Source: an uncultured Gemmatimonadales bacterium
GTDB lineage: Bacteria; Gemmatimonadota; Gemmatimonadetes; Longimicrobiales; RSA9
Direction: 5' to 3'
Assembly: GCA_963798085.1 (NCBI GenBank)
Contig: CAWCRS010000003.1
Location: 928,001 to 992,000 of the forward strand
Length of the DNA: 64,000 nucleotides
Shown: positions 1,098 through 28,473 of the stretch, piece by piece
Layout: each line of letters begins with the position of its first letter
Numbering within the stretch: position 1 is the stretch's first letter
Position numbers and translations under genes: made by a program
The notes under the pieces: generated by a model
Databases searched by the model: none
Seen by the model: the letters and a program-made list of their open reading frames with translations, nothing else
What the model was told of the DNA's origin: nothing

Positions 1098-1106
1098 TGT
1101 TGTTCT

Positions 1107-1358: not shown

Positions 1359-1599
1359 ATGTCTGTTACTGTGAGGACGACCGTGTATCTGGATGCGACC
1401 GACTACCGGCGGCTGAAGGGGATGGCGCGGGCGCGAGGGCCGGACTGCGGCGGAGCTGGTGCGCGAGGCGGTGGCGGAGTACGCGCGCCGGCACGTGGCG
1501 GCAGACCTGCCGCAGAGTCTGGGCGCGGGTCGGAGCGGCCGCGGCAATGTGGCGGAGCGAGCGGAGACGCTGCTGTCCGGTCTGGGAACGGACGCGTGA
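1359..1599 (+). CDS. RHH/CopG-type antitoxin (VapB-like), frameshift near 1440
   Basis: RTTVYLDATDYRRLK, then in the shifted frame AAELVREAVAEYA...GLGTDA*. Its TGA overlaps the PIN gene GTG (GTGA 1596-1599). Confidence 0.75.
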
Positions 1600-2009: not shown

Positions 2010-2146
2010 GCGGGTGGCGCGCCGATCAGGAGCGGGATTCGCAGTACTTCCGGATGCGATTGACCCGCCAGGACGAGCGCAGCAGGCCTTCCTGAATCCG
2101 CGTCAGAAGCTCCTCCGAAACCCCTCTCGCAAGCACGCTTCCCCGT

Positions 2147-2537
2147 TCAGCACTGCCGCCTCCAGATCGCTGAAGCGAACAACCATGCCGTTGCTGAAGT
2201 GCACCACGGTCTCGTGCCGAATGAACGGGTGGCTGCCCGGTGAGAGGACGACGCCAGGTCGCCGGGCGTGGCGGTCACGACCTCGGTGATACTGTCGAAG
2301 GGCGATCCCGCCTTCTCGTGCGCCTTGCGGACGTGCTCCGCGCTGGGCGCCATGCTGAAGCAGTATGCGCGGCCGTCCTCGAATCCGACATGGGCGCGCA
2401 GCACCACGTTGCCTTCCTCGCGGCTGTGCTTCTCGACAGGCGGCGAAGAACGTCGCGAACTCCTCTTTCGAGATCCCGGCCGGGAACCTGTTCGAGCGGT
2501 GGTCGTGGGTGTCAATGAAAAACTTCATCGGTCGCAT
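2147..2537 (-). CDS. DUF4242-like small protein, frameshifted
   Basis: MRPMKFFIDTHD, then in a second frame GRAYCFSMAPSAEHVRKAHEKAGSPFDSITEV. GGAGG RBS upstream. 3' end uncertain. Confidence 0.6.
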
Positions 2538-2929
2538 CGTGATCCTCCGTAAAGGTGGTGCCTCCGGTTGTTGGGGGGCGATACGGGGAAGTGTAGCAGG
2601 GGCGACGGGGTGTCTGGAACCTGGGTCTCTGAAGGAGAGTCTCGAACGAGTCAGCCTAAATGATAGCACCGGGAGGCTGCCCGGCCGCCGTGTTTCCAGA
2701 GTGGCGTGAGGCAGTTCACAAGCAGCGCGAACGGTGGCGCCTTGTCCCGAATTGACATATTGTGACCGGCGACCCCGCACTCCAGCGCGGGGACGCGGCT
2801 GCGGGTCCGCACACATGATCGTGTACTTGCCTTGTCATCGGTTGACGACTGTCGCGCCAATTGATTCCAGTGCGCGCCACTAATGACTGAGCAGAAGAAC
2901 TCGGCGATGCGGCCATCGCGGGAAGGGAT

Positions 2930-4960
2930 ATGAAGCTCAAGCACGCCATCATCGAAGTGATGGATCGGGACCTTCTCAAGCAGGTCTGTGACCGTCTCGA
3001 GATCGAGGCCGTCGACAGACGCAGCCGCGGGGATCTGCGGCCGCAGTCTCGCGAAACCGTAGGGCGAAAGCGGAAGAGCTGCTCGACTACCTCAACGAGA
3101 AAAATGTCAAGGAGGTTTGCGAGCTGGTCGGCGTTTCATCGCATGGGCGCCGCGCTGTTTTGGTCGAGCGCCTGCTGGGCAGTGACAGGACAAGAATGGA
3201 ACCACGAACAATGAAGGAGATGAAGCTCCGACTCCAGCCAGAAGTAGCACCGGCTCGCGGAAGGCGAAGCCCGACGCTCCAGAAAGGCAGCAAATGGATT
3301 GGCTCTCTGACGAGGAGGAACACTCCGCGCCAGCGCGATCAGCTCGAGCATCTCGAAGCGCGCGCAGGACATCGCGGAAGGTCAGGCAGGGGAATGCGGA
3401 GAGCGCCGCTGTCATAGGGTATGAGGCGCAGCTGTGGCAGATGGCCGACGCTCTGCGCGGCAGCATGGATGCTGCGGAGTACAAACACGTTGTTCGGGGT
3501 GATCTTCCTCAAGTACATCTCGACGCGTTCGAGGAGCACCACGCGAAGCTGGATGCAGAGCGCTCGTCGGGTGCCGATCCCGAGGACCCGGACGAGTACC
3601 GCGCGCTCTCCATCTTCCGGGTCCCGCCCGAAGCACGCTGGCCGTACCTGCGCTCCAACGCCCGACAGCCCACAATCGGCCAGCTCGTGGACAACGCGAT
3701 GGCTGGCATCGAGCGGGACAACCCTGCCCTCAAGGGAGTGCTTCCGAAAGACTACGCGCGCCCGGCACTGGACAAGACACGGCTCGGGCCAGCTCATCGA
3801 CATGATCAGCAATATCAAGGTAGGCGACGAGGCCAGCCGCGCGCGCGATGTGCTCGGCCGCGTGAACGAGTACTTCCTCTCGCAGTTTGCCAGCGCGGAG
3901 GGCAAGAAGGGCGGCGAATTCTACACACCACGTTGCGTTGTGAAGCTTCTGGTAAAGATGGTCGAACCCTACCGCGGCCGCGTGTACGATCCGTGCTGCG
4001 GCTCCTCCGGCATGTTCGTCCAGTCCGTGGAGTTCATCCGCGCTCACTCGACTGCGAATGGCAATGGCGGTGCTGCACCAGGCAAGAAACCAGACATCTC
4101 GATCTACGGCCAGGAGTCGAACTACACCACGTGGCGCCTCGCCAAGATGAACCTTGCGATCCGCGGGATCGACGGGCAGATCGCACACGGCGACACCTTC
4201 CGTTCCGACAAGCATCCCGATCTGAAGGCGGACTTCATCCTCGCCAATCCACCGTTCAACGTGTCCGACTGGGTGGCGAACAGTTGCGCGACGACAAGCG
4301 CTGGAAGTTCGGCGTACCGCCGACAGGGAACGCAAACTTCGCCTGGGTGCAGCACATCGTGTCCACCTGGCGCCTGCCGGCGTTGCCGGTTTCGTGCTCG
4401 CGAACGGCTCAATGTCGTCCAATCAGTCGGGCGAGGGTGAGATCCGCGCGAATCTGATCGAGGCCGGCCTGATCGACTGCATGGTGGCGCTGCCGCCGCA
4501 GCTGTTCTATTCGACACAGATCCCGGCGTGCCTCTGGTTCATCGCCCGTGAGCGATCGAATGGCATGTTTCGGGATCGCCGCAGTCACAGCTTATTCATC
4601 GATGCCCGCAAGCTCGGCGAGATGGTGGACCGAACGCATCGCGAGCTGACCGATGAAGATATCGCACGCATAGCAGATATCTATCACGCCTGGCGGGGGG
4701 AAACGGGAGCAGGCAGGTACGTTAATGTCCCGGGCTTCTGCCACAGTGCCGGAATAGACGAGGTCCGTAAGCACAGCCACGTGCTGACGCCTGGTCGATA
4801 CGTAGGGGCTGAACAGTCCGCAGAGGACGTTGAGCCGTTTCATGAGAAGATGGTGCGGCTATGCGCAAGCCTTCGAGAACAACAAGACGACGCTAGGAAG
4901 CTGGAGGATGCCATTGCCGCGAACCTGACGGCTTTGGGTTATGTCGAATGTATGAGTTGA
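2930..4960 (+). CDS. hsdM: Type I RM methyltransferase HsdM with N-terminal helical extension; several frameshifts
   Basis: [39 protein letters not shown] (motif I), ILANPPFN (motif IV, amino-MTase) and LTPGRYVG spread over several frames. Confidence 0.92.
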
Positions 4961-6272
4961 CGGCACTCCGAGATGGAGGCTGGCTTTATCGCCCCGAGTT
5001 TCCGCCCGACTGGCAAAGGCGGCCATTGTATTCCTTGGCAAAGTGGGTGAACGGTTTAGCCTTCCGCGACATTCAATTTAGCACGGCTGGCATGCCGGTG
5101 ATCAAGATCGCCGAAATCAAGGGCGGGATTACGGATCAGACCAAGTTCACGCGACAGACGTTCGATGATTCAGTCCGTGTGCGTCCGGGCGATCTACTGT
5201 TCTCCTTGTCGGTCAGCCGGAGACATTGATAGATGCGTTCTGGTGGCGTGGTCCAGAAGGATGGCTGAACCAACACGTGTTTAGGGTGACATCGAGCAGC
5301 AATGTCGATACAGCGTTCTTATACTATCTCCTGCGATATCTAAGGCCACACTTCGTGGGAATCGCCCGCAACAAACAGACGACTGGCTTGGGGCATGTTA
5401 CGAAGCGAGATCTGGAAAACATTCAGGCAGCCTATCCTACGATGGCCGAGCAACGCGCTATTGCACACATCCTCGGCACGCTGGACGACAAGATTGAGTT
5501 GAACCGCCAGATGAGCGAAACGCTCGAGGCAATGGCGAGAGCGCTATTCAAGTCCTGACTCGTGGACTTCGATCCGGTGCGTGCCCAAGCCGAAGGCCGC
5601 GACACAGGTTTGCCCAAGCATATCGCCGATCTCTTCCCCAACCGGCTTGTCGATTCCGAGCTCGGCGAGATCCCGGAGGGTTGGGAGTTGAAGAGCCTCG
5701 ATGCGATCGCACAGTTTCTGAATGGATTGGCGCTTCAGAATTATCCCGTTTCGGACGGCCGCTCAATCCCTGTTGTCAAGATCGCCCAATTGCGCAGAAA
5801 TAGCACCCATGGCGCGGATCAGGCTAGCGCGGATCTCGAGCGGAGCTACGTCGTCGATGATGGCGACATCCTGTTCTCGTGGTCGGGCTCACTTGAGTGC
5901 GTGCTTTGGACCGGTGGTCGTGGGGCTCTGAACCAGCACATCTTCAAAGTTACGTCGTCATCTTATCCACAGTGGTTTCTTTTGTTCGCGGTTCACTGCA
6001 CATCTCAAAGAGTTCCGGCGAATCGCGGCAGGCAAAGCAACCACAATCGGCACATCCAGCGGCACCACCTGTCCGAAGCGTTAGTCGCCGTCCCACCGCT
6101 CACACTTCTCAGTGGGTTAGACCGAATGATTTCGCCATTCGTCGAGCGATCATGGAAGCTAAGAGTCGAATCCCGAACGCTTGCCGAAATACGCGACACA
6201 CTACTTCCTAAACTTGTTTCCGGCGAGCTGCGCGTGAAAGACGTGCATCGCTTCGCCGCAAAGGCAATGTGA
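4948..6272 (+). CDS. hsdS: Type I RM specificity subunit HsdS; frameshifts and in-frame TGA at 5556-5558
   Basis: Two TRDs, conserved [19 protein letters not shown] helix, [10 protein letters not shown] linker and C-terminal [15 protein letters not shown]. Confidence 0.92.
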
Positions 6273-7237
6273 TGAGCAACGTTTGGTGCGTCCGAGCCGA
6301 GTGGGGAACCTACACCCGCCAATTCGTCGAGGGTGGGTACGTGGCGATCGGCTGGATAAACGGCGTGGATCTGACCGCGATCCGCACGCGAGAAGAGCTA
6401 TACCCGTTGTACAAGCAGGCGCACCCGGAAGACACGAGCAACATCGTGATCGGCCAGCAGGTCGGACAGATCGCTCGCTTCCTGCTCGAGATACGCGCGG
6501 GTGACTACGTGATCACCCCTGCGGCCGACACCGAGCACCTGCACCACGGGCAGGTTTCTCCCGATCCGTCGTACTTCTATGCCCCCGGCGACGCCGCATG
6601 TCCCTATCCGCACCGCCGGCGCGTTTATTGGTCAAAGAACACGCTGAAGCGTGGCGACTTCTCCGTTCCTTTCCAGAACACCATCCGCTCGTCGCTCACG
6701 GTCTTCGCCGTTTCGCAGCGCGACGAATTCCTCGCAGCGATCGGCCGGACCAATGTCACTCCACAACACCCGGCGCCGGAATATGACCCGTATCGTGTCG
6801 TCTCGAGCAGATCCTCGAACTTGATGACAAGGAGTTCGAGATCCTCGTCGCTCACCTGCTGACGGCGGTCGGTTTTGAAGGTTCCGAGGTGACCGGGAAG
6901 ACGGGGACGGGGGCGTCGACGCCATCGGCGAGCTGAACGTTTCGAATCTCGCCAAGGTCAAGGTCTACGTGCAAGCCAAGCGGTACAAGCTCTCCTCCAG
7001 AGTGACCGCGGGCACGGTACGACAGCTACGCCAGGCCATCCCGTTCGGCGGCCAGGGCGCATTCATCACGACCGCGGGCTTTCAGTCAGCCGCTGCCGAC
7101 ATTGCGCTGGAGGCCGGCTTCCCGCGCATCGGGTTGGTAAACGGCAGACAGCTCGTTGACCTGCTGGTTGAGCACTGGAGTGACATTCCGCCGGAGTTTC
7201 GCGAGCGGCTTGGGCTAAAGCCGGGGTTGGTGCGAGC

Positions 7238-7241
<4 letters not shown>
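6272..7241 (+). CDS. mrr: Mrr-family restriction endonuclease, frameshifted
   Basis: N-terminal WCVRA...GYVAIGW domain. C-terminal [35 protein letters not shown] (Mrr_cat PD-(D/Q)xK). Confidence 0.82.
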
Positions 7242-10844
<3,603 letters not shown>

Positions 10845-11203
10845 GCAAGCCCTTGCGCTAGAACAATTTACACGGTATGGCGGTCCAACGCGCCAAGGGA
10901 TTCGTGGCCGAGCGCCCAACTTCCGGGTTACGGCAATATCGGGGCAACTTTCCGATGTCACAGGGTCCTGTTATCGTCCCCATCTGCGTGAACGTCCCAC
11001 CAGGACTTCGCAGCCTCGGGTACCGCGCCTGCGGACATCCCACAACCATCAAGGGACGAGAATGGTTAGTCACCGCCGCCAATCTGATCCGCGAGTGGGA
11101 GCGCGGATCTGCATTCTGGGTCTAATGTGTCGGTTCACACTGTCGAGATCATTTCTACCCACGATTTGTTCATCCAGTTACCAGGGCGCCGCGGCTCCGA
11201 TCG

Positions 11204-12973
11204 ATGAACATTTTCTCATTTTTCTTCCCGCAAGGACAGCCCGCAGCGGTCGTCCTGAATGCAATCATAACGGTAGTTGGCGTCATGGCACTAGTGCGCC
11301 TGTACCTCAAGGGCGTGCGGCCGCTTCACGGTGAAGCGAAGGCGTTGGCGGACGTTGAAACGTGTTTGAAAGGGGACGTCTCGGCAGACGTCATCATCGA
11401 AGCCGCCCAATCGGTACCGCCGGAGACACTTGTCGCTGTTCGCATTGATGAACTTGCCCGGTTACGCGAACTGGGCGAGTGAGATTTCACCCGACCTCCC
11501 TGCTGGAACTGGCTCTCGCGCGTTTGGATAGACGCACCGCGTTTGCACGCTGGGCCGCGAGCGCCATTGTCCTCATGGGATTGGGCGGGACGCTGCTGGG
11601 CCTTTCGATCTCCGTGACCGCGGCTACCAAAATTGTTCGGGACAGCAACACGCTGCCCTCGTTCGAGAGCGTCCTTACCCCATTCGCCGGACTTCAAACG
11701 GCCTTCTCAACGACATTGAATGGCATCCTCTTGGGCTTTGGCCCTCGGAGCGGGCATAGCATTCATTCGAAGCAGCCAAACGCGCTTCCTCGTCGAACTT
11801 GAACGATTCACGATGATTCGACTGGTACCGCGTTTTGTAGCGCGCCAACAGTGGCTCTCGTGAATGCGGTGCGGACCTTAGGGGCGATCGAAAGTAAGCT
11901 GGAACGAGCCTTTGACGCGATCACCACGGAAGTAAAAGACCGCGGCCTATCCCTGGTTCTGAGCATAGAGACTGCTTTCGACAATCTCACGACTAACTTC
12001 GATGAGCGGGCACGCGAACTGCTCGAGGAGTATGTCTCCACGAATGAAGCCGTGACTAAACTGATCGGGAATTCCGACGAGACGGCTACGCTCGCCGCCA
12101 CCATTGAGTCTATGGCGATGGCGACGGAAGCGACGCAACGTGCGGCTACTGTCACGTTGGAGTTTGGAACTGCATTCTTGTCAAGGACCGAGGACCAGCT
12201 CAACCGCGAACTCGAAGCCATCCACCAGACACTATCCCGGGAAGCACTCCGAATCAGCACTGCGGCAGAAGATCAACGAGAGATATTCCGGGATTTGACG
12301 GTCAAGTTCGCCGGTTTCCTCCCCGAACTGAAACAAGGCGTAGATAGTGCATTGGCGGACGAACATATGCGCTTTCAGCAGATTCTCGAAGCGTGAGGAG
12401 GCAAGGTGGTCATCATCTGCAGCGGCGCTATCGGATTCGCTGGCCGACCTTGTCAGAGGTACGACCGAGCTCCACACTACCGTCGACGGTCTCCGTGAGA
12501 AGGTGCAGGAGCGCGCGACGACGCTAGAACGCGTGCATGCGGGACTGGCCAACATTGAGTCAGCTGTACGCGAGACGACCGAGATGATATCTCGCACAAC
12601 CGAAGCGCTGCCTCAGAGATTTGCCAAATTGATGGATAGCCGCATTTCGGTTTCGCAAGCTTGGCCAACCCGTGGGCCAGACAAGCCTGGCGCGGAGGCT
12701 ACACTCAAATCCAGCAACCGCCCGAACGGGGAGACCGCGCCATCCACGGTGCCCGCTACAGCGGCTAGTGCCGACCACAGAGTGCCAAGTGAGTCCCAAC
12801 ACTTGAAGGTAGCCGGAATGGAACCACAGGGAAATGGGGCCGCAGAAGAACCCAGCCCAGATCGCGGACCACGCCCGACACCTCCGACGCGAAGCGCAAG
12901 CGGTCCGCAGGCAGCGGGAAACCGACCGCAGACATTGGTGCGCAACCTGTTCGCCAGATTGCTGGGACGCTGA
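11204..12973 (+). CDS. ZorA-like / MotA-ExbB-like membrane protein with long helical tail (~590 aa once ~4 frameshifts are joined)
   Basis: Three hydrophobic segments: AAVVLNAIITVVGVMALV, AIVLMGLGGTLLGLSISV and AFSTTLNGIL-WALALGAGIAF. The GxxGT and AFxTT signatures are MotA/ExbB/ZorA-like. These are followed by ~300 aa of helical tail and a Pro-rich end. Confidence 0.72.
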
Positions 12974-12982
12974 GCCAGGGTC

Positions 12983-13619
12983 ATGGCGTCGATCGATCTT
13001 CGTGTCGGCAAAGAAGGCGACGAAGTCAGCTTCTGGAGTGTCGTTGCGGATCTGTCCCTCACTACGGTCCTCATGCTGGTCCTGCTAGTGCTTGTCCAGT
13101 TCCTGGCCACCTTCCGCGAAAGCAGGATCAACCAAGAGCTCCAGTTGCGGCAACACGAGATGAAAGTTGCATTAAACGGTATCAGCACCGGTTCCATAGG
13201 GATCGACAGCATTGCACCAGACCGGCAACGTTTGACCTTCGCGAACCAGTTGCTGTTCGAGAGCTGTGATGTCACTCTGCATGGCCGAGGAAGGGAATTG
13301 CTACGGAAAGTGGGCTCGGTGATTCGCGATCGGCAAAACTACTTTGAGTCCATCCACGTTGAAGGACACGCGGACGCCAGATCCACTGGCGGTGCGGCTT
13401 GTCCGTACGCCTCGAATTGGGAGCTATCGTCCCAGCGTGCGACGGCGGTGGTGCGTATACTCGCCGATAGCGCCGCACTGGATCCGCGGATGCTGTCAGC
13501 AACCGGCCGCGCAGAGTTTCATCCGATTTGATGTTGTCGATCTTAACCGCAATCGACGCATTGAGATCATCCTGCTGTACGACCGTGCAGCAATAAGTGC
13601 CAATAGCGTTTCTCATTGA
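12983..13619 (+). CDS. ZorB-like / MotB-OmpA-family protein, frameshift near 13527
   Basis: Single TM with FWSVVAD(23)L (stator Asp), then OmpA-like motifs LLFES, VEGHAD, NWELSSQRA, SATGRAEFHP and NRRIEI (last one in the shifted frame). Confidence 0.85.
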
Positions 13620-13690
13620 AGAGAAGTCACGTACGGGGCAGTATCGCGGTGCAGAGAGCCGTGTCCAAATACCATACGCGGAGCTGAGGA

Positions 13691-16600
13691 GTGAACGACG
13701 CAAGATCACCCGATCGCAGCCGAGAAGACCTGGTCGACCGGGTCAGCAGAGTCTTCGGTTTCTTGAAGGCGGTTCAGGAAGAGCGCAATCCGCCTCCTAC
13801 CCAAATCCGGCAGCACCCCTGGGTCCTCCGCTTCAGTGACATTCCGCAACACGACTGCACGCATATTCGGCCCATATCATCATATCTCAATACTGAGGAG
13901 CGTGATGTACCTGATGCCGGAAGGCGCGACGCGATTCTGACGGTCCGGAGGCCACAGCTAACCGATCCACCTACTCCTCCGGCTGAAATACGCAAATGGC
14001 TGAAGGGTACCTGGTCCGATCCAAAACTTCTGCCGGAGCACCTTTCTGTCCCACCCTCAGGAATGGACGACGATCTGGAGACATTTGACCATGATTCAGG
14101 CCGCGCCCAGGCGTGGACAGCGTGGATCAATGAGTGGCGGCAGTGGTCGGATTCGGAGCGTCCCACGCGGGTCGTCCTTGACCTGTATCAACGGCTGTTT
14201 GCTTTGCACGGGCGGCTGGAGCGCGAGAGTGAAGCGTATGAACTCATGGTCGGTGACGGCATACTACAGTGGCACGCTCCGGGCGGGCAACCCGTCCAGC
14301 ACCCGATCCTGCTGCAAGCTGTAGATCTAATCTTCGAGTCGGGGCGCGCAACCTTCCGCATTCTGGAAGGCGATCGCCCAACTGAATTCTATTCCTCAGC
14401 ATTTGCCCGAAATCCCAACGTAGATGGTGCACGCATTCGAGCCTACAGCAAACGCGCAGAAGAACATGGATTACACCCATTGGCGCCAGGCGAAACGACA
14501 GGCTTTCTGCGCGACTTGGCCGCATCGCTGAGCGCCGGCGGCGAGTACATGGACGGGCCTGTCGAGCGCAAAGCCACATTCGGACCCTGTTATCGGCCGC
14601 GATCCGGTTCTGTTCCTGCGGCGTCGAGGAGAAGGACTTCAGCGCGTCATAGAAAAGATCCTGATTGATCTGCAGGAAGGCGGTCAGATTCCGTCGTCGA
14701 TCCTTCGCATTACTGGCATTGACCCCGAACCGGGTCTCTCGCGTTTGCCTGCTCGCGGCAATTCATGGGACGAACCACAAGACGTCCTGCTGACCAAGGA
14801 AGCCAATCAGGAACAGATCAAGATTGCTGAACGGCTGGAGCAGTCTGGTGCTGTGATCGTGCAAGGCCCACCCGGAACCGGCAAAAGCCACACAATTGCC
14901 AATTTGATCGGACACCTTCTCGCGCGTGGTTCGCGGGTTCTCGATCACCAGCCATACCACCAAAGCACTGAAAGTCCTGCGTGAGAAGGTTGCGGAAAAA
15001 CTCCAGCCTCTCTGCGTCAGCGTTCTCGAAACGGATCAGGCCGGGCGCGAACAACTTGAGCAAGCGGTAACTGCGATCGTGGCTGCCTTGGCGGATCGAG
15101 ATCCTGATCGCCTGAGAGCCGATATCCGCAGTCTTCGTGTAGAACGCGATCAACTTCTTGTACATCTCCGAGATGTGGAACGTTTGCTCCTTGAAGCTCG
15201 CCGCGCAGACTACTTACCCGTGTCCATTGGCGGCAAGACGTGCACACCCGGGGAAGCGGCGCGCGAAGTGGCCTCGGGCGCCCACGCTCATGGTTGGATC
15301 CCGGGCCCCGTAGAAGCCGGGGCGCCGCTGCCACTCAGCGTCACGGCCATCAACGACCTGTATGCCACGAATGTTGCCGTAACTATCGACGCTGAGCAAG
15401 AACTCATCGAATCAATCCCTGCCTCGGACGAATTGCTGCAGCCAGATGAGTTTATGCAAGTTGTGGCGGGGTTGGTCAGCGACCAGTCTGCTGTCTTCGA
15501 TGCGTATTGGAGCTCACCTGCATCGCCGGATGACAGTATTGACTATGAAACGCTCGGAGAAGCAGCTATACGGGCAATGGCGCCTCTCACCAATGACTCA
15601 GGTTGGGAGATCGCGATAGTTGCGGCCGGCAGAAGGAAGGAAGGGGCCGCGGCTCCATGGATCGAATTGATCCGATCTATCGAGACCACGACCGCAACGG
15701 CGGCTGGAATCCAGGAGACTCTGATTCGGTCTGACCCTCATTTGGCTGATGACATTTCGCTCACCGACTCACTCCGGCTGGCAACCGAAATCGCAGCGCA
15801 CGTGCGCCAGAAAGGTCATGTTGGGCGCCTCCAGAAGCTGTGGCAAGCTGATTGGCGTCATTTCATTGCCAAAGCGCGGAGCAGAAACACCGAACCAGAC
15901 ACCCTTGAGGATTTTGAGGCGCTCGCTGCATACACGAAGTTGTTGATCCAGCGAAAGAGCCTGGTTGATCGCTGGGATCGGCTGATGGCGCCATTAGGCG
16001 CACCGACTTGCGCTGAGTTGGGGCCGGAACCAGAGATAACTTGCGAGCAATATGTGCCGGGCATTCAACAAGCTCTCGACTGGACGGCAAGGATGTGGGA
16101 GCCAGCTTGTGCAGCGCTCGAGGCAGCCAACTTCGATTGGGAGCAATTTATCGGCGATCAATCTGCAGACCTGAGACAGTACGGCGACCTGCTGCGGATC
16201 CGCGACAGCGTCCTTGGACCGCTGCAGCAGTGCTTGGCCGTCCGGCAGGCGGCCGTCCGCCACGAGAAGTCAATGATTGTGCTGGAGGCATTGGAAAATG
16301 CACTTGCGGGTTTCGTTGGTGCAACGACCACCAATCTGAAGAAGGCGGTAAAGTTACGGGACCCCGATGCCTACGCCATTGCATTCAACCGATTTGAGGA
16401 CCTTCGGGCGCGTGATGCCGTCCTGCGTTCGCGTTTAGCGTGGCTGAAAGCAGTCGATACCAGCGCACCAAACTGGGCCCAACACATTAGAAGCCGCGAC
16501 GGGAAGCACGGAGCTCCCCTTCCTCCTGGCGATCCCAATCGAGCATGGCGCTGGCAACAGCTGAGCCAAGAGTTAGATCGCCGTGCATTGATTGATACCG

Positions 16601-18191
16601 TTCGGTTAACGCGCGAGCGCGAAGAACTCCGCGGCCGTATTCGCCACGTAACGGTCGATCTGATCGAGGCACAGTCATGGCTTCATCAGATCGAGCGGAC
16701 TGCCAGCGACGAGCGAAGGGCATTGGTCGGGTGGGCCGATACAATGCGGCGGATCGGCCGCGGTAACGCCGCCGGGCACCAATCCTGCGAGCTGAGGCTC
16801 GCAAATTGATGGATAAAGCGCGTTCAGCCGTGCCAGTATGGATAATGCCCTTGTCGCGTGTTTTCGACAGCTTCGATCCCGGGAGGGAGAGATTTGACGT
16901 AGTGATTATCGACGAGGCGAGTCAGGCAGACATTACTGCACTTGTTGCGCTGTATATGGGGCGCCAAGTTGCTGTTGTTGGCGACCACCAGCAAGTCAGT
17001 CCTCTCGATGTCGGGCGGGATCTGGGGAGTCTCGACAGCCTGATTGCCCAACACCTCGCAGACATTCCCAGCAGCCATCTCTACGACGGAAAGACCTCCA
17101 TTTACGATCTGGCGCGCCAAAGCTTTGGTAGCACGATTCCGTTAATGGAGCATTTTCGGTGCGTACCGGAAATAATCGAGTTCAGCAACGGCTTATCGTA
17201 CAACTGGACCATCAAACCACTGCGGGACGGAGCAAACGCGGTTGTCGGACCTCCAACGGTCGAGTTCTACGTATCAGCTGTGCAGGCGCAGCAAAGGCGC
17301 AACCGGAAGGAGGCACTTTGGATTGCGGCTCTGCTACAAGCTTGCATTGAGCAACCGGCATATTCCGATAGCACGTTCGGAGTCATCTCCCTGGTTGGTG
17401 AGGAGCAGGCTATCGAGATCGAGACGCTGCTGCACAGAGAGTTGCCGCCATCGGAGATCCACAAGCGCCAGATAGTCTGCGGCAACGCAGCGCGATTTCA
17501 AGGGAATGAGCGTAATGTGATCTTCCTCTCAATGGTCGATGCACCGTCAGGTGACGGCCCGCTTGCGCTTCGTTCACAAGACCTTTTCAAGCAGCGCTTC
17601 AATGTGGCAGCCAGCCGTGCCCGCGACCAGTTGTGGCTTGTGCATTCACTCGACCCCGGAACGGATTTGCAGCCGGCGGACTTGCGCAGGCGGCTTATCG
17701 AGCATGTCCGAGACCCGGGACGACATCTCCGCGAGCTCTCCCGAGAGCAGGCCCGTACAGAATCCGAGTTCGAGCGCGAGGTGCTTCGTGCATTGGTTGC
17801 AAAGAACTACCGAGTTCGGAGTCAGATTCATGTGGGGTACTATCGTATTGACATGATCGTCGAAAATTCCGCAGGAAAGAAGGTCGCAATTGAGTGCGAT
17901 GGCGAACGGTTCATCCGATCGAGAAGATTCCTGCCGACATGGCCAGGCAAGAAAAATCCTGGAGCGCCTGGGTTCGACCTTCATCAGGATCCCGTGGAGC
18001 AGGAATGGTACCGGGAGCCGGATAGGACGCTGGATGAAGTGATGAATGAACTGAGCCGACTTGGCGTTGATCCGCTCGGACCTGCAGATAGCCTGATAAC
18101 CGTGGCAGCAATGGAGTTGAAAGAAGCAGTCATTCGGCGAGCCTTCGAAATCGCTAACGAACGGAGGGTGAAGTGGAGCCCATTTCCGTGA
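13691..18191 (+). CDS. Large SF1 (DNA2/Upf1-like) helicase with C-terminal Vsr/DUF559/MTES_1575-like nuclease; frameshifted, ~1500 aa
   Basis: ANQEQ, VQGPPGTGKSHT, FDVVIIDEASQ, VGDHQQ, EHFRC, FQGNER, RFNVAASRA; then ESEFEREV...YRIDMIV...VAIECDG. GAGGAG RBS before GTG 13691. Confidence 0.88.
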
Positions 18192-19183: not shown

Positions 19184-21894
19184 TCAGCGGCGCATCGACT
19201 GTAGCGGGTCCGCGCGCGCAGCCCGCAGCGCGGGCACCAACGTAGCGCTCAGCGCCACGACCAGCACGGTAGCTGCGGTGACAGCGAGCACGAAAGGATC
19301 GCCGGGAGAAGTGTGGAAGAGGAGAGGTTGCACGAGGTGGCCCGTGAGGCGGACGAGCACGAGGCCGATGAGCACACCGGTTGCGCAGTGATGAACGGCG
19401 CCCGACCGAGCACCGATCCGAGGATACGCCCCTGCCGCGCACCGAGCGCCACGCGAATGCTCAGCTCGTGCAACCTCTCGCCCACCACGCAGGACATCAC
19501 ACCGAAAAGACCGACGGCCGAGAGCAGGATCGCGAGCGCGGCGAAAAGGCCGAAGAGCACGGCGCCCAGTCGCGCGGGGCGAGTGTCGCCGGCGAGCAGC
19601 GTGGACATGGGTACCACGTCGACCAGGGGCAGCTCCGGAGCGACGCTCTGCAGGCGTTCGTGGATGACGCGCACACTCGCGAACGCATCGCCGGCAGGCC
19701 GCACGAGAAGCGCGCGCAGACCGGAAATGCCACGACCCGCCTGCTCGGGCACATAGAGCTGCGGTCCGGGAGCATCATCACCGAGACGGGGGGACCGCGT
19801 AGATTCCGCCACGCCGACCACCGTCGAGCAATGCAGCCCCTTCTCGCCGAGGTGTGTCATCCCGATATCAATGCACTGGCCAATGGGATCGGCGTCGGGC
19901 CACAGCACGCGGGCTAACACGTCGTTTACGATCGCGGTATTGCGGCCGTCCTGCGAGGCGAACGCTCTGCCTCGCAACAGTCGCGTACCAGCCGTCTCGA
20001 AGTACTCGCTGGATACCGCCATCATGCGTACTTCGGCGTTGTGCAGCTCGGGAATCGTGTCGCGGCCGGGCAATGCCACGGTAGTGCTCAGGTAGGAGCG
20101 GTAGGGCATTCCCTCGACGAGCGCGGCGTGCTCGATGCCGGGCATCCGCGACAGCTCCTCGAGCATTGTGCGCAGCACGTCATTCGCCTGCGCGTCCGAG
20201 AACCCTGCGGCGCCGAGATCGGTCGAGACCAGGAGCAGGCGATCGGCATCCATGCCGGTGCGCAGCCGCGACCCATTCACGAAACTGCGCACGAAAATGC
20301 CGGTGCCGGTGAGGAGCACGACGGCGGCGGTCGCCTGCAGAACCAGCAGCACCTGGCGCGTGCGCGTAGGCGAGGCCGCTCGCATGCCGGAGCGCAGCTC
20401 GTGCGCGAGATCGGCAGGCGCGGCGCGCAGCGCGGGGAGCAGCGATGTGCTGACGCCCACGAGCAGCGTGACGAGCGCGGTGAAGAGAAAGACGTGCGCG
20501 TCGACCGGTGATTGCGGCCATGCGTAGTCGTCCAGCAGCAGGTGCTGCAGCAGTCGGCCGCCCGTGGCCACGAGCAGCAGGGCCGCGGCACCGCCCAGTA
20601 CCGCGAGGAGCAGCGACTCGCTCAGCAGCTGCGTGAACAGGCGCCCGCGTGTGATGCCCAGTGCCATGCGCAGTGTGATCTCGGGCCGGCGTCGCAGTAT
20701 GCGGGTGAGCAGCAGATTGGCCACGTTGACACAGGCCATGAGCAGCACCAGCAGGGACACGACACCCAGGACAAACGCCACGCGACTGGCGGCAGGAATG
20801 TTCGCGGAGCGCGCTGGAATGATGGGGTCGAGCTGCAGGCGATCCCGCTCCGCGCTCTGGCCACCGGCCGCCTCGCCCGCGCGGTAGATCGCGGTTGCCT
20901 GCGCCGCGGCCGCCGCGGGGGCAACGCCCGCGCGCAACCGCCCGCGCACGCGCAGCAGCTGCATCCGCCGCATCGTGCGCCAGGTATCCAGCGGGAAGCG
21001 CGGCGCGTCGGCGGCGTTCAGCGGGACGAAGACATCCGCCGGCTCGAGGTCGACGCCGGTGAAACCATTCTGCGGCACACCGACAATCGTGAACCAGCCG
21101 GTGCCCAGCTGAATGCGACGGCCGAGCACGCCGGGATCCTCGCCGTACTCATTGCGCCAGAGCCGGTGGCTGAGCACGACGACATTCCCGGCCGCCGTGG
21201 GGACGTCGTCGCCCGGGCCGAGCAGGCGGCCGAGCGCGGCACGAACGCCCAGCATGGGGAAGTAGCCGCCGCTGACTAACAGGCCTTTTACGGAGCGGGC
21301 CTGCGCTCCCCGTCCCAGCGCGATCGCTTGCGGATACGTCTGCGCCGCCAGTGCCGCGAAGTTCGTGGCGCTGCGCTCGAGATCCTGAAACGACGGGTAG
21401 GACATCGAGGTGCGCGTGTATTCCGACGGGCCATCGTGCGCGCGCGTGTCCAGGCCGTAGACATCCTCCGGCGCCACAATGCCGGCGGGCGCGCGCAGCA
21501 GCAGCCGGTCGACCAGCCCGAACATCGTGGCATGCGCGCCAATGCCCAGGGCGAACGTAAGGATTGCCGCCAGGCTGTAGCCGGGCGAGCGGCGCAGCTG
21601 ACGCCACGCGTAGCGACCATCCTGCCAGCGGCGCTCCAGCCATTCGCGCGCGCCCAACACGCGTTCCTTGCGCCTCGCCGCTTCATGCAGCTGCCTTCTC
21701 GTGCTTTCCGCGCCGAAGCGACGCTCCGCCTCCGCGCGCGCGTCCGGCTCCGACCACCCTGCCGCGATCAGCTCTTCCACGCGCAAGTCGACGTGCGACG
21801 CGATCTCCTCATCCAGCTCCGCGCTCCGGCCTGCGTCGCGACGCGGCACGCGCCGGCGCCCGCGGGATCCAGGATCGGCAGGCGAGGATGTCAT
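19184..21894 (-). CDS. ADOP-family (duplicated MacB/FtsX) ABC permease with permease-prefix domain; frameshift near C-terminus
   Basis: ELDEEIASH...ARAEAERRFG prefix, LTFALGIGA, ACVNVANLLL, ELSIRVALGA and terminal PALRAARADP. Confidence 0.9.
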
Positions 21895-22220
21895 GCATCC
21901 GCCAGCACCGTGTGCAGCATCGTCGCATACTCCAGCAGCCGCGACGTCTCCTTGCGCAGCTCCTTCCGTCCCGCGCTCGTGAGCTGGTAGTAGCGCGCCC
22001 GCCGGCCGTTCGCCGTCACGCCCCACTCGCCGCGAATCGCTCGCCGCTGCTCGAGCCGGATCAGTGCGTGGTACAGGGCGCCATCCTCCACATCCAGCGC
22101 GCCACCCGAGCGCTGCTCCAGCCAGCGCGTGATCTCGTAGCCGTGCAGCGGTCCCTCCGCCAGCGTGCGCAGCACCAGTACATCCAGCGTTCCCCGCACC
22201 AGCGCGATCGTCTTCTTCAT
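21891..22220 (-). CDS. PadR-family transcriptional regulator
   Basis: GTLDVLVLRTL...HGYEI...GALYHALIRLE...RRARYYQLT. Stop overlaps the permease start (ATGA). Confidence 0.92.
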   Translation of the reverse strand: MKKTIALVRGTLDVLVLRTLAEGPLHGYEITRWLEQRSGGALDVEDGALYHALIRLEQRRAIRGEWGVTANGRRARYYQLTSAGRKELRKETSRLLEYATMLHTVLADA

Positions 22221-22478
22221 GATCGGTGCTCTCCTCCCAGTATCTTGGGGCAAGCATGTCAGGTCAGGAGCGAGGCGGCAATACCGTCGGGACGAAGTGA
22301 GGTGCGTGCGCCGCGAGCGGTGGTAACGCGGGTTGCGCGGCGGTGGGCGGGACACGACTGACGGTGTTACGATTCCTCGGTACTTGTGCACAACTACCGA
22401 GGCTTTGTGACATCGGACACGCCGCACTAATGTGTTCCGCGTTCATCGATTCGAAGTTCTCGGGCGGAGGCCGGCAGC

Positions 22479-23563: not shown

Positions 23564-23890
23564 ATGGTCCCCCGACACCTACCCGCGACTTCAAGCGAAC
23601 GGTAGCGACACGCGTGGAGCGCGATCCGGCTTTCGCGCGCGCGATGCTCAATGAAGCGGCGACACTGTTCCTGAACGGCGAGCCGGAAACAGTGCGCATG
23701 TTGCTACGCGATCTGGTGAACGCCACGGTCGGCTTCGAGCAGCTCGCCAGGCTGACGGAGAAGCCGGCCAAGAGTCTGCATCGGATGCTGTCGGCCAACG
23801 GCAACCCCAGCATGGACAACCTCGCAACGATCGTCGACGATCTCCGGGATGAACGTCGAGATCGAGCTGCATGCGGTGCAGGCCCCGTGA
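23564..23890 (+). pseudogene. HTH addiction-module antitoxin (frameshifted), preceded by a possible toxin C-terminal remnant (~23455-23530)
   Basis: TRDFKRTV...RDPAFARAML...LRDLVNATVGFEQLA...KSLHRMLSANGNP. Upstream QLRDMNRARELLVEHNARK resembles the end of a RelE-type killer gene. Confidence 0.7.
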
Positions 23891-23973
23891 TTCGAAGCGC
23901 GAGCATCTGTCCACCGATATGGGCGAAGCGAAACGGCCGCCCGTTCGACAAGGTGGCGCAGACGTTCCACCAG

Positions 23974-25498
23974 TCAGAGCGAATCCACCGCACGAACGAC
24001 ATACCCGAGCACGAAGTTCCCGAATGGCGTCGCGGTCCTGCCTGACGGTTGCCGCCTCCAGCGTCTCGAAATACGGAATGCGGTCGTCACTTCGGATGGT
24101 GACCCAGGGGAAGCCCGCAGTCATGAGGCAGAGGTTCATCAGGAATCGTGCGATCCGACCGTTGCCGTCCGGAAACGGGTGAACCGCCACAAAGTCCAGA
24201 TGAACGAGTGGCGCCCGGACGATTGCTGGCTCACGAAGTTCGTTCGCCAACTCGATATGCTGCTGCATGAGTTGTGGCACCTTTTCCGGCAATGGAGGGA
24301 CGTAGCGCGCACCGCGCAGGTAGGCCGGGTTGCTGCGCCAGCCACGCAATGCGTCGGCATCGATGATGCCGGCCTCCACAGACGGCGAGAAAAGGTCCTG
24401 ATAGAGCGTCTGGATCAGCGGCTCCGAGATGTCGAGGCTTCCGTCTGATTCGTTGATGATCGCGATGCAGCGATCGAACGCTGCCGAATAGCCTTTCACC
24501 GCCATTCGTGCCTTCACATCCTCCGGATCGTGCCCGCCGACCTGCCGGCCAGCGATCACGGCCGAGACTTCTTCGGGCGTGATTCGATATCCCTCGATGG
24601 TCGTGGAGTGGTAGGCGTCATAGGTCTTCGCCGCCTCCGCTTGCCGCACCAGCCGGGATCTGTCGAAACGGGGCTGTTCAATGTGAGAGGCAAGCTCTTC
24701 CCGGATCTGGTCGAAGAAGCCGCGGAAGGTCACCTCGTGTCGCGCCAACCACGGAGAGATGGATCGCGCCTGCGACACCAGCCTTGGAATCACGACCTCC
24801 GAGCCGACACCCGTGCGTGCCCGGCTGATGTGTTCCCCGTGTTCGATGGCAAGCAGGCCGTCGAGCTGTTCCGCGAGACGCCCGTTGCCGGCATTGCCCG
24901 CCATTTCCGCCAGGCGCCGGATGACCAGCGGGCGTGGCATACGGGACCACTCCTGTTGGAGCGCGGGCCTGGAAACGATCAGAGAACGAAGCCAGATCGC
25001 GACCCGTTCCAGATGATCTCGCAGTGTGGTCAGCGGAAGCGCGAGCAGCGTCCGCTCCGGTCGATCCACGGAGAGTTCCGCCCCATCCAGGACGATCGTC
25101 TTCGCCTCCTCCGGGACGACGTCGCCCGGCATCGCCTGCAGCTCGAGCCCGTCACACAACTCGAAGGTATAGTTGCTTCGACTGCTCCCGTGACGGATAC
25201 GAAGGCGGGCCGGCGGCGTCGCATCCTCAATGTACAGCTGCACCGCCGATTCTCGTTCGAGAACTGCGGGCTCGTAGTTCTTGAGAATCGCCTGCACGAT
25301 CCGCCAGTAGTTGCGGAGGCACAGGTCCCGGTCCGGCTCACGCTCGGGCGTCTTGAGGATCCAGGCTTGTCCTCCTGCCGCTTCCACCGCATAGCCACCG
25401 CGGAGCAGGAGGCCGCGCCCCCTTCCCCGCGGTTGTTCGGACCGGGCCATGACGAGGCGGTCGTTCTCGACCTGATCCCTCCACCACGCGATGGCCAC
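23974..25498 (-). CDS. Fic-family protein (putative AMPylase) with N-terminal extension
   Basis: Canonical HPFPDGNGRIAR motif and upstream STTIEG inhibitory-type motif. Likely true stop at 23974 after a late frameshift. Start uncertain. Confidence 0.88.
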
Positions 25499-25724
25499 GT
25501 CCCTGCTTCTGAGCGTCGGTCCGGTCAGTCCTCGCCTCCGGCAGGTACTTTTGCTCTAACAATCTTGGTACGATTACTATATCATGTCTGGTACGAAGGC
25601 TCTAATCAAGCAAGTACGATCGCGATACCCTGAAGCTGGGTCAAGTGGCAGGAGGGCGGCGCCCGACCACAAGCCAGTGACGCGAAACGGCCGCCTGCAG
25701 GCGGTCGATTCCTCGCGCGAGAGG

Positions 25725-26031: not shown

Positions 26032-28473
26032 TTACGTCACGAGCGCTTCGTGCGGCTGCACGCGCAGCGCGCGGCGTAGCGGCACGGCGGCCGCCACAAT
26101 GCTGACCGCGCCCAGCGCCAGTACGGCGAGCACGGCAAACAGCGGGCTGGCTGCGCGCGCGCCGTAGAGGAAGGATGCCATGAGCCGGGCGGTCACCCAT
26201 GACGCGGCCAGTCCGGCGACGACGCCGATGGCGACGATGCGCAGTGCGTGACCGTACACGGCCCGGGCCACGTCGCTGTGCCTCGCGCCGAGAGCCACGC
26301 GCACCGCGATCTCTCTCGAGCGTGTCGCCACGGTGAACGCGAGCACGCCATAGAGTCCGAGCGCGCTCAACAGCATCGCGAGAATGCCGGCATAGGAAAC
26401 GGCGCTGCCCGCGAGGCGCACCGAGCGGTAGGCGTCGGCGATGGCCTGCTGGACGGGCTCGACGTCGCTGACGGGGACGGCGGGGTCGACGGCGCGGGCG
26501 GTGGTCTGCAGCAACATCCGCGTCGCGGCCGGGTCGCCGGTCACGCGCACCGCGAACCTCGCCTCAATGGCGGTGGGGTCCTGCCAGAAGGCGGTGTAGA
26601 CGACGGGGGCGCCGGCCTCGTCAGGACGGCGCACGCGGTGGTCGCGGACGACGCCGATCACGGTGGCTTCGGCGCCGTCGACGACGAGCGGCTGGCCAAT
26701 CGGCGAGGCGTCGGGCCACTGGCGACGGGCTAACGCTTCGTTGACCACGACCACGCGCGGCGAGCCGACGATGTCACGGTCGTCAATGGCGCGGCCGGCG
26801 ACCAGCGGGATGCCGAGGGTCTCGAAGAAACGCGGGCCCACCTGTTTCCAGGCGGCTTCGGGCTGCGGGGTGCCGGCGGGCGGCGTGTGACCCGGAAGCC
26901 ACGTCGTCGCATGAAATCCGTAGAACCAGACCTCGCCGGTGCCGGCGAGGGTGACCGATTGCACGCCGGGCACCGACTCGAGGCGGGCCACGATCTCGCG
27001 CAGCACGGGCCTGGCGCGGGCGGTGTCGTAACCGACGAGGCCGGGCCGCACGCGCGTGCCCACGACGTGCGCGGCATTGGCGAGTGCGTCACGCAGGACA
27101 TTGCGCATGCTCTGCACGAGCATGCCGGCGCTCACGAGGCCGAGGCAGGCGAGGGCGATCTGCAGGGCGAGGAGGATATCGCGCGCAGGGGTCCGGGCGC
27201 GGCCGCCGGCACGGGCATCGCCGCGGAGCACGCCACCGGGATCGGCGCGCGCGACCTGGACGGCCGGGCCGACGCCGAAGGCGAGGCCGGCCATGAGCGC
27301 GAGCAGCGCGGCACTCGCCATGACCATGGGGCTGAGGCGCAGCCCATACGGGAAGCGCGCTCCCAGGTACATTGACTCGAGTGCGGCCTGCAGCCAGATC
27401 GCGACAAGCAGACCCGCGCCCGCGCCCAGCAGTGCAAGCGCGACGCCTTCGATCGCCAGCTGGCGCACGATGCGTGACGGGGAGGCGCCGATGGCGCGGC
27501 GGATGGCGATCTCGCGGTAGCGCGCGACGCCGCGCACGAGGAGCATGCCGGCAAGGTTGGCGCAGGCGACGAGGAGGAGGAGCACGCCGGCCGCCAGCAG
27601 CAGGGCTACGACCTTGCGGTGGTCGTCGCGGTGGGTTCCCGCGGCAACGCCTCGCAAGGGCCGGAGCTCCAGGCGGAAGGCGCCGTCGAAGGCGCCGAAG
27701 GTGACGCGTGCGTCGCGCTGGCTGGCGAGGCGCTGGCCGAGCACCGTCATTTCGGCCTGTGCCTCCTCGAGCGTGCGGCCGGGTGCGAGCCCGCCGAGGA
27801 GCGCGAGGATGCGGCAGTCGCTGGCGAAGGCATTGCCACAGAAGCGGTAGCCGATGGCGAGCGTCGAGAGGGGAATCCAGACATCGTTCGGCTCGCCGAT
27901 CTGCGCGCCGCGGAACGCGGGCGGCGCGACCCCCACCACGGTGAAGGCCGCGCCGTTGAGCATGAGCGTCCGGCCGATGACGCCGGGGTCCCCGCTGAAC
28001 CACTCGTGCCACGCACGGAACGAGAGCACCGCGACGGGCGCCGGCGTGCGCGCGCGGTCCTCCTCGTCGTTGAAGAAGCGGCCGGCGGCGGGCCTGATGC
28101 GGAGCAGCCGGAAGTAGCTGGCCGAGACGACGGCGCCGGCGACAATGCGTGCGTCACCGGCCTGCGTCAGTGTGAGCGGCGATGTCGAATAGTGCGCGGC
28201 CACCTGCGTCAGCGTCCGGCTCTGCTGCACCAGGCTCGCGTACTCGTCCCAGGCGAACGCGCTCGGCTCGTAGATGCGGTCGCCGAAGCTCGCGTAAATG
28301 CCGACGACGCCGCGGCTGTCGGCGCCGGGAATCGGGCGCCGGAAGAGCGCATCGGCGAGAGAGAGGATCGCGGTGTCGGCACCGATGGCGAGCGCCAGCG
28401 TCACGACGGCAACGCCAGTGAACACGGGGCTCCTGCGCATGATGCGCAGGCAGTAGACGAGGTCGTGCTTCAT
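26032..28473 (-). CDS. ADOP-family ABC permease
   Basis: MKHDLVYCLRIMRRSP, TLALAIGA, ACANLAGML, REIAIRRAIGA and REIAVRVALGA. GGAGAGG RBS. Confidence 0.92.
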   Translation of the reverse strand: MKHDLVYCLRIMRRSPVFTGVAVVTLALAIGADTAILSLADALFRRPIPGADSRGVVGIYASFGDRIYEPSAFAWDEYASLVQQSRTLTQVAAHYSTSPLTLTQAGDARIVAGAVVSASYFRLLRIRPAAGRFFNDEEDRARTPAPVAVLSFRAWHEWFSGDPGVIGRTLMLNGAAFTVVGVAPPAFRGAQIGEPNDVWIPLSTLAIGYRFCGNAFASDCRILALLGGLAPGRTLEEAQAEMTVLGQRLASQRDARVTFGAFDGAFRLELRPLRGVAAGTHRDDHRKVVALLLAAGVLLLLVACANLAGMLLVRGVARYREIAIRRAIGASPSRIVRQLAIEGVALALLGAGAGLLVAIWLQAALESMYLGARFPYGLRLSPMVMASAALLALMAGLAFGVGPAVQVARADPGGVLRGDARAGGRARTPARDILLALQIALACLGLVSAGMLVQSMRNVLRDALANAAHVVGTRVRPGLVGYDTARARPVLREIVARLESVPGVQSVTLAGTGEVWFYGFHATTWLPGHTPPAGTPQPEAAWKQVGPRFFETLGIPLVAGRAIDDRDIVGSPRVVVVNEALARRQWPDASPIGQPLVVDGAEATVIGVVRDHRVRRPDEAGAPVVYTAFWQDPTAIEARFAVRVTGDPAATRMLLQTTARAVDPAVPVSDVEPVQQAIADAYRSVRLAGSAVSYAGILAMLLSALGLYGVLAFTVATRSREIAVRVALGARHSDVARAVYGHALRIVAIGVVAGLAASWVTARLMASFLYGARAASPLFAVLAVLALGAVSIVAAAVPLRRALRVQPHEALVT

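Follow-up and report, generated by a model that had tools for sequence, protein, structure and literature searches.

A ZorAB-like motor pair followed by a helicase-nuclease gene in a Gemmatimonadota genome: a candidate Zorya-like defence system

Zorya systems are built on a membrane motor, ZorA5B2, which the accessible parts of two reports describe as a rotary motor anchored to peptidoglycan that, once activated, brings about the recruitment of DNA-attacking nuclease partners (PMC11946911, PMC11890865). The same parts recognise three Zorya subtypes, each defined by the genes behind ZorAB (PMC11890865, PMC11946911); the signalling from tail to effector is still under study. Here we compare with these systems three genes, named A, B and C, found in a genome of the phylum Gemmatimonadota (assembly GCA_963798085.1, our label G000). 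We analysed 64,000 nucleotides of contig CAWCRS010000003.1, positions 928,001 to 992,000; this whole stretch is called the window, and coordinates are window-based. An earlier note on this DNA had claimed that three co-oriented genes, separated by short gaps and lying after hsdR, encode a MotA-like protein, a MotB/OmpA protein and a helicase-nuclease, and both genes and domains were found in place:

11204 (ATG) to 12973 (TGA), + strand: gene A, ZorA-like membrane protein of predicted MotA/ExbB fold, about 585 residues
12983 (ATG) to 13619 (TGA), + strand: gene B, ZorB/MotB-like protein, about 211 residues
13691 (GTG) to 18191 (TGA), + strand: gene C, superfamily 1B (SF1B) helicase-nuclease, about 1500 residues

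The gaps measure 9 bp between A and B and 71 bp between B and C, and no terminator-like site was found on the + strand between the three genes. We consider it an even bet that the three genes form a single operon and encode an anti-phage system of Zorya-like type, rare and undescribed, whose motor acts with helicase effectors, C being the one used at this locus. That A and B belong to a new Zorya-like family coupled to helicase effectors is probable; for the coupling of this pair to C in particular, which is plausible, the case is evenly balanced.

Proteins A, B and C

The segments and motifs on which the comparison of the three proteins relies are the following.

11243-11308, + strand: A, first transmembrane helix (TM1), from the alignment to homologues
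11551-11616, + strand: A, TM2, from the same alignment
about 11698-11780, + strand: A, TM3, from the same alignment
12935-12970, + strand: A, C-terminal tip LVRNLFARLLGR, after a helical tail of about 300 residues and a Pro-rich stretch
13049-13051, + strand: B, conserved Asp D23, present in 5/5 aligned B N-termini
13551-13568, + strand: B, NRRIEI at the end of the OmpA domain, in the next frame after a frame change near 13528
14865-14888, + strand: C, Walker A motif GPPGTGKS, with an insertion of about 600 residues after it
16905-16925, + strand: C, motif II IIDEASQ of the SF1B helicase
17841-17861, + strand: C, YRIDMIV of the C-terminal MTES_1575/DUF559 (Vsr-like) nuclease
17889-17906, + strand: C, IECDGE of the same nuclease

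Proteins of the A family have 540-660 residues and share an N-terminal FFFS motif (given as FFF(S/P) for A itself) with TM1, a cytoplasmic segment, and TM2 and TM3 with the signature GTLxGL...TAFSTTLMG; a helical tail of some 300 residues and a Pro-rich stretch follow, and most members end in a tip resembling FWDRxFGR. A search of 5.8 billion proteins returned 12 homologues besides the query, and among 1.84 billion representatives the family comprises 60 clusters at E<=1e-30, rising to 328 at 1e-10 and to 1131 at 1e-3. In the AlphaFold2 (AF2) model of one homologue, P0009, whose mean predicted local distance difference test score (pLDDT) is 64, the tail consists of helices 217-334 and 344-519. 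Alignment and model agree with the earlier description of A as a MotA-like protein with three transmembrane helices and a long helical tail and, as modelled, A is of ZorA-type architecture, with a MotA/ExbB-type membrane domain and a long C-terminal helical tail. In a Foldseek comparison of the first ~230 residues of the P0009 model, TM-scores on the target were 0.6-0.67 for ExbB/TolQ chains, 0.60 for ZorA 8vvn, 0.57 for ZorA 8qyk and 0.49 for MotA. The modelled fold is that of the 5:2 motor superfamily, and by itself does not choose between the branches of this superfamily.

Profile searches point to ZorA at a distance. With the PADLOC models, a ZorA model was the best match in all 28 of the 30 sampled A relatives that matched anything (two matched nothing); it was usually ZorA3, at only 22-83 bits and with a best E-value of 4.5e-24. 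Intact A homologues reached 18-50 bits (E 1e-5 to 5e-14) and a piece of the window A an E-value of 0.0094. The curated NCBIfam models ZorA_1 and ZorA_4 (NF033914/NF033917) matched only homologue P0004, at 17.5-19.5 bits against cut-offs of 190-500, which leaves it outside curated membership, and no NCBIfam ZorA match was obtained for P0009 or for the A proteins of two further loci described below (L046 and G626). In the ESM Atlas, A is nearest to unnamed clusters bearing MotA_ExbB, followed by ZorA type I clusters.

Protein B has one transmembrane helix and an OmpA-type peptidoglycan-binding domain (OmpA E 7e-11). Together with the Asp found in every aligned N-terminus, this bears out the MotB/OmpA protein with a stator D23 proposed earlier, and B is, judging from its sequence, of ZorB architecture: MotB-like, with a transmembrane Asp and an OmpA domain. 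Its PADLOC matches are ZorB1 (3.2e-14) and ZorB3 (3.7e-14). It lies below every NCBIfam equivalog cut-off, with 17-25 bits on ZorB1/ZorB2 (cut-off 400) and 34-76 bits on the MotB, MotD and MotS models (cut-offs 250-300). B is thus far below the cut-offs of MotB-type proteins of the flagellar MotAB motor, and no flagellar, Tol, TonB or ExbD family was found among the window open reading frames (ORFs) scanned with Pfam (34 + 25, short ORFs being only partly covered), as the earlier note had held.

An ordinary energy transducer of the ExbB/TolQ type, with a role in the envelope or in transport and none in defence, would share its membrane-domain fold with A. The slightly higher Foldseek scores of ExbB/TolQ chains compared with ZorA chains, and the weak Pfam MotA_ExbB matches of the A proteins, speak for such a reading, which we nevertheless find hardly credible. 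The ExbB-ExbD and TolQ-TolR 5:2 motors have no tail, and the ~300-residue tail of A finds no room in ExbB/TolQ chains of 217-236 residues; their partner, ExbD or TolR, lacks an OmpA domain, whereas B is OmpA-type and MotB-like; they act with TonB or TolA, and the scanned ORFs contain no TonB, TolA or ExbD family. Further, all four loci at which we read the context of A (see below) lie among restriction or defence genes. The separation of A from ordinary ExbB/TolQ, on which the earlier note depended, is therefore upheld by the tail, by the OmpA partner and by PADLOC, where only ZorA models were matched, and is not upheld by Foldseek. Because of the long tail, the OmpA-type partner with its Asp, the defence-island setting and the exclusive PADLOC matches to ZorA and ZorB models, the evidence supports A/B as a ZorAB-like pair that is neither an ordinary ExbBD/TolQR nor a flagellar MotAB pair.

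Protein C carries the Pfam domains AAA_11, AAA_12 and MTES_1575, with DUF559 also matched in intact homologues, and its nearest solved relatives by sequence are Upf1, Sen1, IGHMBP2 and DNA2; motifs and domains fit the DNA2/Upf1-like helicase of about 1500 residues with a DUF559/Vsr-like nuclease that had been claimed. Intact homologues of 1510-1554 residues are found in genomes G010, G027 and G626 (1548 residues in the last). The N-terminal domain, of about 370 residues, has no assigned fold (AF2 pLDDT 69.6), and its model gave no match in the PDB by Foldseek at E<=0.001. A complex prediction between the end of the window A tail (190 residues) and this domain scored 0.00; it was run without controls and counts neither way. 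The best PADLOC match of C is PDC-S37, followed by MkoC/MkoA and Hhe. For PDC-S37 the E-value is 3.8e-30 with the last 474 residues of C, 6e-63 with the G010 protein and 1e-69 with that of G626, intact homologues ranging from 1e-60 to 1e-70.

In the mechanism that we propose, A and B would assemble, like ZorA5B2, into a 5:2 motor that sits in the inner membrane and is driven by ions, with B anchored to peptidoglycan through its OmpA domain, D23 serving ion transit, and A carrying a cytoplasmic helical tail of about 300 residues. An infecting phage would perturb the envelope and switch the motor on, A would, through its tail, recruit a helicase effector to the vicinity of the entry site or license it there, and C, the only candidate effector at the window locus, would translocate on the invading DNA and cut it.

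Recurrence of the A-B pair and its neighbours

The context of the A family was read at four loci, out of a family with 60 known clusters at E<=1e-30. Searching genome contigs with C gave four loci, one of them that of G010, and metagenome contigs with an A alignment gave four, one with useful flanks. No further A-family locus was found in viral contigs or, by tblastn, in plasmids. The four loci are:

Window: A-B-C; frame changes in all three genes
Genome G626 (locus L062): A-B-C; an insertion sequence (IS) splits B; C is intact, with an 8-bp overlap between its start and the B stop
Genome G010 (locus L009): A-B-SF2 helicase-C; the superfamily 2 (SF2) helicase (ResIII/DEAD/Helicase_C) overlaps the B stop, and C follows it after 16 bp
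Metagenome contig L046: A-B-SF2 helicase without C, preceded by GmrSD and followed by an unrelated PLD-SNF2 protein and a type ISP-like methylase

A C-type helicase-nuclease thus lies downstream of A-B, on the same strand, at 3/4 loci, in G010 after the SF2 gene. The expectation that homologous ZorAB pairs keep the same helicase held at these three loci and failed in L046, which has SF2 only, while G010 has both helicases. Taken at sequence level, the effector slot behind A-B appears modular, being occupied by C alone (window, G626), by SF2 alone (L046) or by both (G010). Between or beside A-B and C, the window and G626 showed no further candidate effector. All four loci contain defence genes: a type I restriction-modification block at the window, McrBC and PemK in G626, WYL and hsdM in G010, and GmrSD with the PLD-SNF2/type ISP pair in L046. 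No gene upstream of A is common to the four.

The A family is rare. Strong matches occurred in 3/401 genomes of the order (G000, G010 and G626), and in all three of these carriers C adjoins A-B. At other levels the family was found in 2/73 genomes of the taxonomic family, with the one other genome of the genus lacking it, in 1/401 genomes of a phylum-wide sample searched with a single query sequence, in 1/61 genomes among relatives of G626 (G626 itself), and in 0/301 genomes of another soil phylum, to which a Vulcanimicrobiota genome with a stand-alone C belongs. Given this rarity, chance adjacency with C is unlikely. The A proteins of the three C-linked loci are only about 24-29% identical; the A tree puts the window, G626 and the G010 group each on a deep branch of its own, and L046 in a crown clade of ten. 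In a C tree of 17 proteins (LG+G4, quick search), the C proteins of the window, G010 and G489 form a clade (Shimodaira-Hasegawa-like approximate likelihood ratio support, SH-aLRT, 98), and that of G626 lies far outside the window/G010 clade, beyond several stand-alone clades. The separate basal A branches, together with the distant C of G626, place the adjacency on either side of the deepest splits in both the A and the C family.

Several observations nevertheless weigh against C being the effector of one A-B-C operon. The sample is small: four loci, three of them from one order, and all from metagenome-assembled genomes (MAGs) or metagenome contigs. C is common without A-B. C-like genes (E<=1e-20) are present in 81/401 genomes of the order sample, and a tblastn search (E<=1e-3) with all variants in hand found A, B or SF2 in the fetched DNA near 0/16 other C loci, 15 of which include at least 1.4 kb upstream of C and one of which ends at the gene. 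The A family is absent, genome-wide, from three genomes with a stand-alone C. G489, an unpublished genome, has a stand-alone C that is sister to the window/G010 C clade and lacks A. C proteins with and without A-B have the same length and the same domain order, with no extra docking domain, and the N-terminal domain of the window C shares 37-38% identity with the G010 and G489 domains, about 30% with other stand-alone proteins and 14% with the G626 domain. SF2 is alone with A-B in L046 and stands between B and C in G010, so SF2 could be the true partner and C a mere neighbour. In G626, the FWDRxFGR-like tip of A is not retained, and an IS (9850-11303 of L062, G626:C12; an HTH_Tnp_1 ORF and an rve integrase ORF) parts the transmembrane from the OmpA portion of B, by which the system is probably inactivated in that genome.

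On one rival reading the genes are independent neighbours in a defence island: C would be a self-sufficient enzyme of the Hhe/PDC-S37 kind, and A-B would have been orphaned here by the loss of its own SF2 effector. C stands alone at 16/16 other loci and in genomes without the A family, its architecture is unchanged by A-B, and its best PADLOC match is already a single-gene candidate, so that the independence of the helicase, which the earlier note had named as contrary evidence, is in part what we observe. Hhe, moreover, is reported in the accessible part of its description to act alone against lambda, T3, T7 and PhiV-1, with its nuclease site required. The A-B-SF2 arrangement of L046, without C, and the overlap of SF2 with the B stop in G010, where C comes only afterwards, fit the same account. 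It fits less well that C is found downstream, in the same orientation, in all three genomes carrying the rare A family, that this adjacency is kept across two very distant C lineages and across A proteins as divergent as those above, where mere neighbours would be expected to part, that the B stop and C share 8 bp in G626, and that A-B would be left without any effector in the window and in G626. We judge independence to be unlikely, though a serious contender.

A related account, in which two separate systems are kept together by cooperation or co-regulation with no physical coupling, would explain both the recurrent adjacency and the autonomy of C. It has a parallel in E. coli, where Zorya II and Druantia III, whose DruE is a helicase-nuclease, are described in the accessible parts of two reports as co-localising and synergising (10.64898/2026.05.12.724681; 10.1101/2025.09.22.677730). 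The Zorya II of E. coli, however, keeps its own ZorE, whereas A-B is without an effector of its own in 2/4 loci, and the translational overlap of B and C in G626 suggests a single operon. We hold this account to be improbable. With C mostly standing alone and A-B also found with SF2, the role of C as a motor-recruited effector is one that we infer from four loci. Of the undescribed Zorya subtype with a helicase-nuclease effector that had been claimed, the ZorAB-like pair, the lack of ZorC to ZorG and the recurrent synteny stand, and the effector role of C is putative.

Some of the loci deserve separate mention. In L046, positions 715-14029 form a dense defence island, whose PLD-SNF2 helicase matches PADLOC C3a139 'HKD+Snf2' (1.5e-50); this protein also touches the ZorD models and is unrelated to A-B. 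Genome G027 has a second C-type copy spread over three frames (L011, G027:C1 4348662-4354960) besides its intact copy at 2.21 Mb, and neither has A or B nearby. Finally, a more distant family of A-B pairs, seen in genomes of family f3 (loci L063-L067), was set aside, having a short tail and no C, SF2 or other helicase nearby. This MotA/OmpA-MotB pair occurs in 11 f3 genomes (E 1e-11 to 1e-15), its A protein has only 385-477 residues, and at L063 (G444, 4572-8088) and L067 (G028, 10453-12563) it adjoins a CHAT-domain protein and large proteins without Pfam match; it may be another motor-based system.

Frame changes and surroundings of the locus

No gene of the trio can be read in one open frame here: the assembly shows about 11 frame changes in these 7 kb (four in A, one in B and six in C). 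A is read in frames 2/1/2/1/2, B shifts near 13528, and three of the six shifts of C fall within ~100 bp of the nuclease core. Repairing the frames gave read-throughs, with X at the breaks, that contain no stop in ~2,300 codons, and the family-conserved residues are kept in every piece: the Asp of B, the Walker A GPPGTGKS, the DEASQ of motif II and the D...ECDG of the nuclease. A TGA at 11800-11802 was considered as a nonsense mutation and rejected; it lies in an out-of-frame stretch, and homologues align through it in frame 2.

The same assembly splits essential genes. On contig C5 of the genome (431855-440305, outside the window) rpoC is in two frames and rpoB in at least four pieces, which indicates that the whole assembly carries indel errors. 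Such errors are typical of uncorrected long-read assemblies, of which this may be one. The A and SF2 homologues of G010, another MAG, show splits of this kind too. From the sequences, the frame changes are most likely assembly errors and the genes are probably intact in the living cell. Given the split rpoB and rpoC, pseudogene calls anywhere in this genome need care.

If the frame changes were real, the trio would be a decaying pseudogene array, non-functional in this organism. Besides their number, it speaks for decay that the upstream restriction-modification genes are broken too, that seven ORFs of 837-1066 residues are open in the 19-64 kb flank, and that the island is of lower G+C content (GC), possibly from recent acquisition. 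The break density, ~1.6 per kb in the trio, is above that of rpoB/rpoC and of the 19-64 kb flank, a further point against an intact system, and some of the breaks could therefore be real. The splitting of rpoB and rpoC, the lack of any nonsense codon together with the conserved motifs in every piece, and the like splits in G010 speak the other way, and we regard decay as very improbable. An intact trio, broken in the assembly only, remains the reading adopted here.

Upstream of the trio lies a type I restriction-modification block, likewise broken by frame changes, which marks the region as a defence island:

3186..10861, + strand: type I restriction-modification block, outside the trio, with hsdM, hsdS, a Mrr_cat nuclease gene and hsdR

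By Pfam, HsdM_N/N6_Mtase cover 3186-4957, Methylase_S ~5.2-5.5 kb, Mrr_cat 6879-7238, and HSDR_N/SWI2_SNF2/T1RH-like_C of hsdR 7184-10858; the trio starts ~340 bp downstream. GC is 0.56-0.59 over 11-19 kb and higher on both sides, with 0.67-0.69 in the first stretch (1-2 kb) and 0.67-0.70 in the second (19-23 kb), which confirms the A/T-richness relative to the flanks remarked on earlier.

Other features of the window are given here in their own right. A tRNA-Asn (GTT) at 1106-1179 and a PIN-domain ORF at 1356-2006 precede a lower-GC stretch of ~17 kb that ends near 19.2 kb and may be an island inserted at the tRNA-Asn; no direct repeat of the tRNA longer than 11 bases was found within 2-26 kb. 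In the broken hsdR region, one frame at 7654-8871 has a match of Peptidase_S24-like type (E 2.8e-7, residues 183-315) between HSDR_N and SWI2_SNF2; such a match is unexpected in HsdR and may be an insertion or an out-of-frame artefact. Just past the island, a second lower-GC patch (0.62-0.64) holds a Fic/DOC-domain ORF of 635 residues (23651-25555, - strand, E 3e-15). Five large MacB_PCD + FtsX permease genes (19252-22263, 26035-28779, 40692-43391, 48444-51071 and 56382-58901) make a striking paralogue expansion within 64 kb.

Comparison with described systems

In PADLOC-DB 2.0.0 no multi-gene system matched the trio, which agrees with the earlier expectation that it would not prove to be a named system. 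The type-specific partners of known Zorya are ZorC with ZorD in type I, ZorE with its HNH domain in type II and ZorF with ZorG in type III; as had been claimed, none of ZorC, ZorD, ZorE, ZorF and ZorG gave a PADLOC match in the window pieces or in the intact A, B and C homologues. No fourth Zorya type was found in open-access papers and bioRxiv, and within that literature our search met no description of this distant ZorAB family or of its helicase partners.

If the coupling is real, a membrane motor can take control of an otherwise stand-alone defence enzyme, sensor-effector modularity would directly link single-gene and multi-gene immunity, and the family would offer a natural comparison of what a motor adds (localisation, timing, self/non-self control) to an apparently autonomous enzyme. 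Zorya-like systems would also extend into Gemmatimonadota, a soil phylum for which we know of no tested defence systems. If C and A-B are instead independent neighbours, what is left is a new, distant ZorAB family beside a known candidate gene, which is of modest interest.

Among described proteins, C is closest to PDC-S37, a single-gene candidate of PADLOC-DB 2.0.0 with a model of 1550 positions. Length is similar, and Walker A, helicase 2A domain and nuclease are collinear, but the match lies mainly in the C-terminal half (model positions ~765-1355) and comes from a PADLOC scan without a curated cut-off. PDC-S37 is also defined as a lone gene, whereas C follows A-B in the window, G010 and G626. 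No paper using the term 'PDC-S37' was found in open-access papers and bioRxiv. Hhe (NF042953, PDLC02194) likewise joins an SF1 helicase to a C-terminal Vsr/DUF559-type nuclease, but C homologues reach only 160.5-162 bits against a cut-off of 2000, C is ~300-400 residues shorter, and DUF4011, a domain of Hhe, is not among the Pfam matches of C or its homologues. The best NCBIfam match of the C homologues is NF058533, listed in that library as 'anti-phage protein ProA' (model of 1903 positions; 207-255 bits, far below the cut-off of 1500).

The SF2 helicase of G010 and L046, a gene absent from the window, recalls ZorD of type I in that it comes right after the ZorB-like B, as ZorD comes after ZorABC. 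It differs from ZorD in its best matches, which are PbeA (8e-69) and TIGR04095, the dnd restriction helicase (183 bits against a cut-off of 600).

For A and B the closest likeness is to Zorya ZorAB of types I-III (nearest PADLOC models ZorA3 and ZorB1/ZorB3; structures 8vvn and 8qyk). A-family proteins reach only 18-83 bits on ZorA models, and the tail of A is shorter than the 683-780 positions of those models imply. What they share is a subunit with three transmembrane helices and a long tail, a MotB-like partner with a transmembrane Asp and an OmpA domain, a tight operon with genes for nucleic-acid-targeting partners, and a defence-island setting. We put forward, tentatively and with somewhat less than even confidence, that the trio represents a fourth kind of Zorya, in which a divergent ZorAB-type motor captured an autonomous Hhe/PDC-S37-like SF1B helicase-nuclease, at least twice or very anciently.

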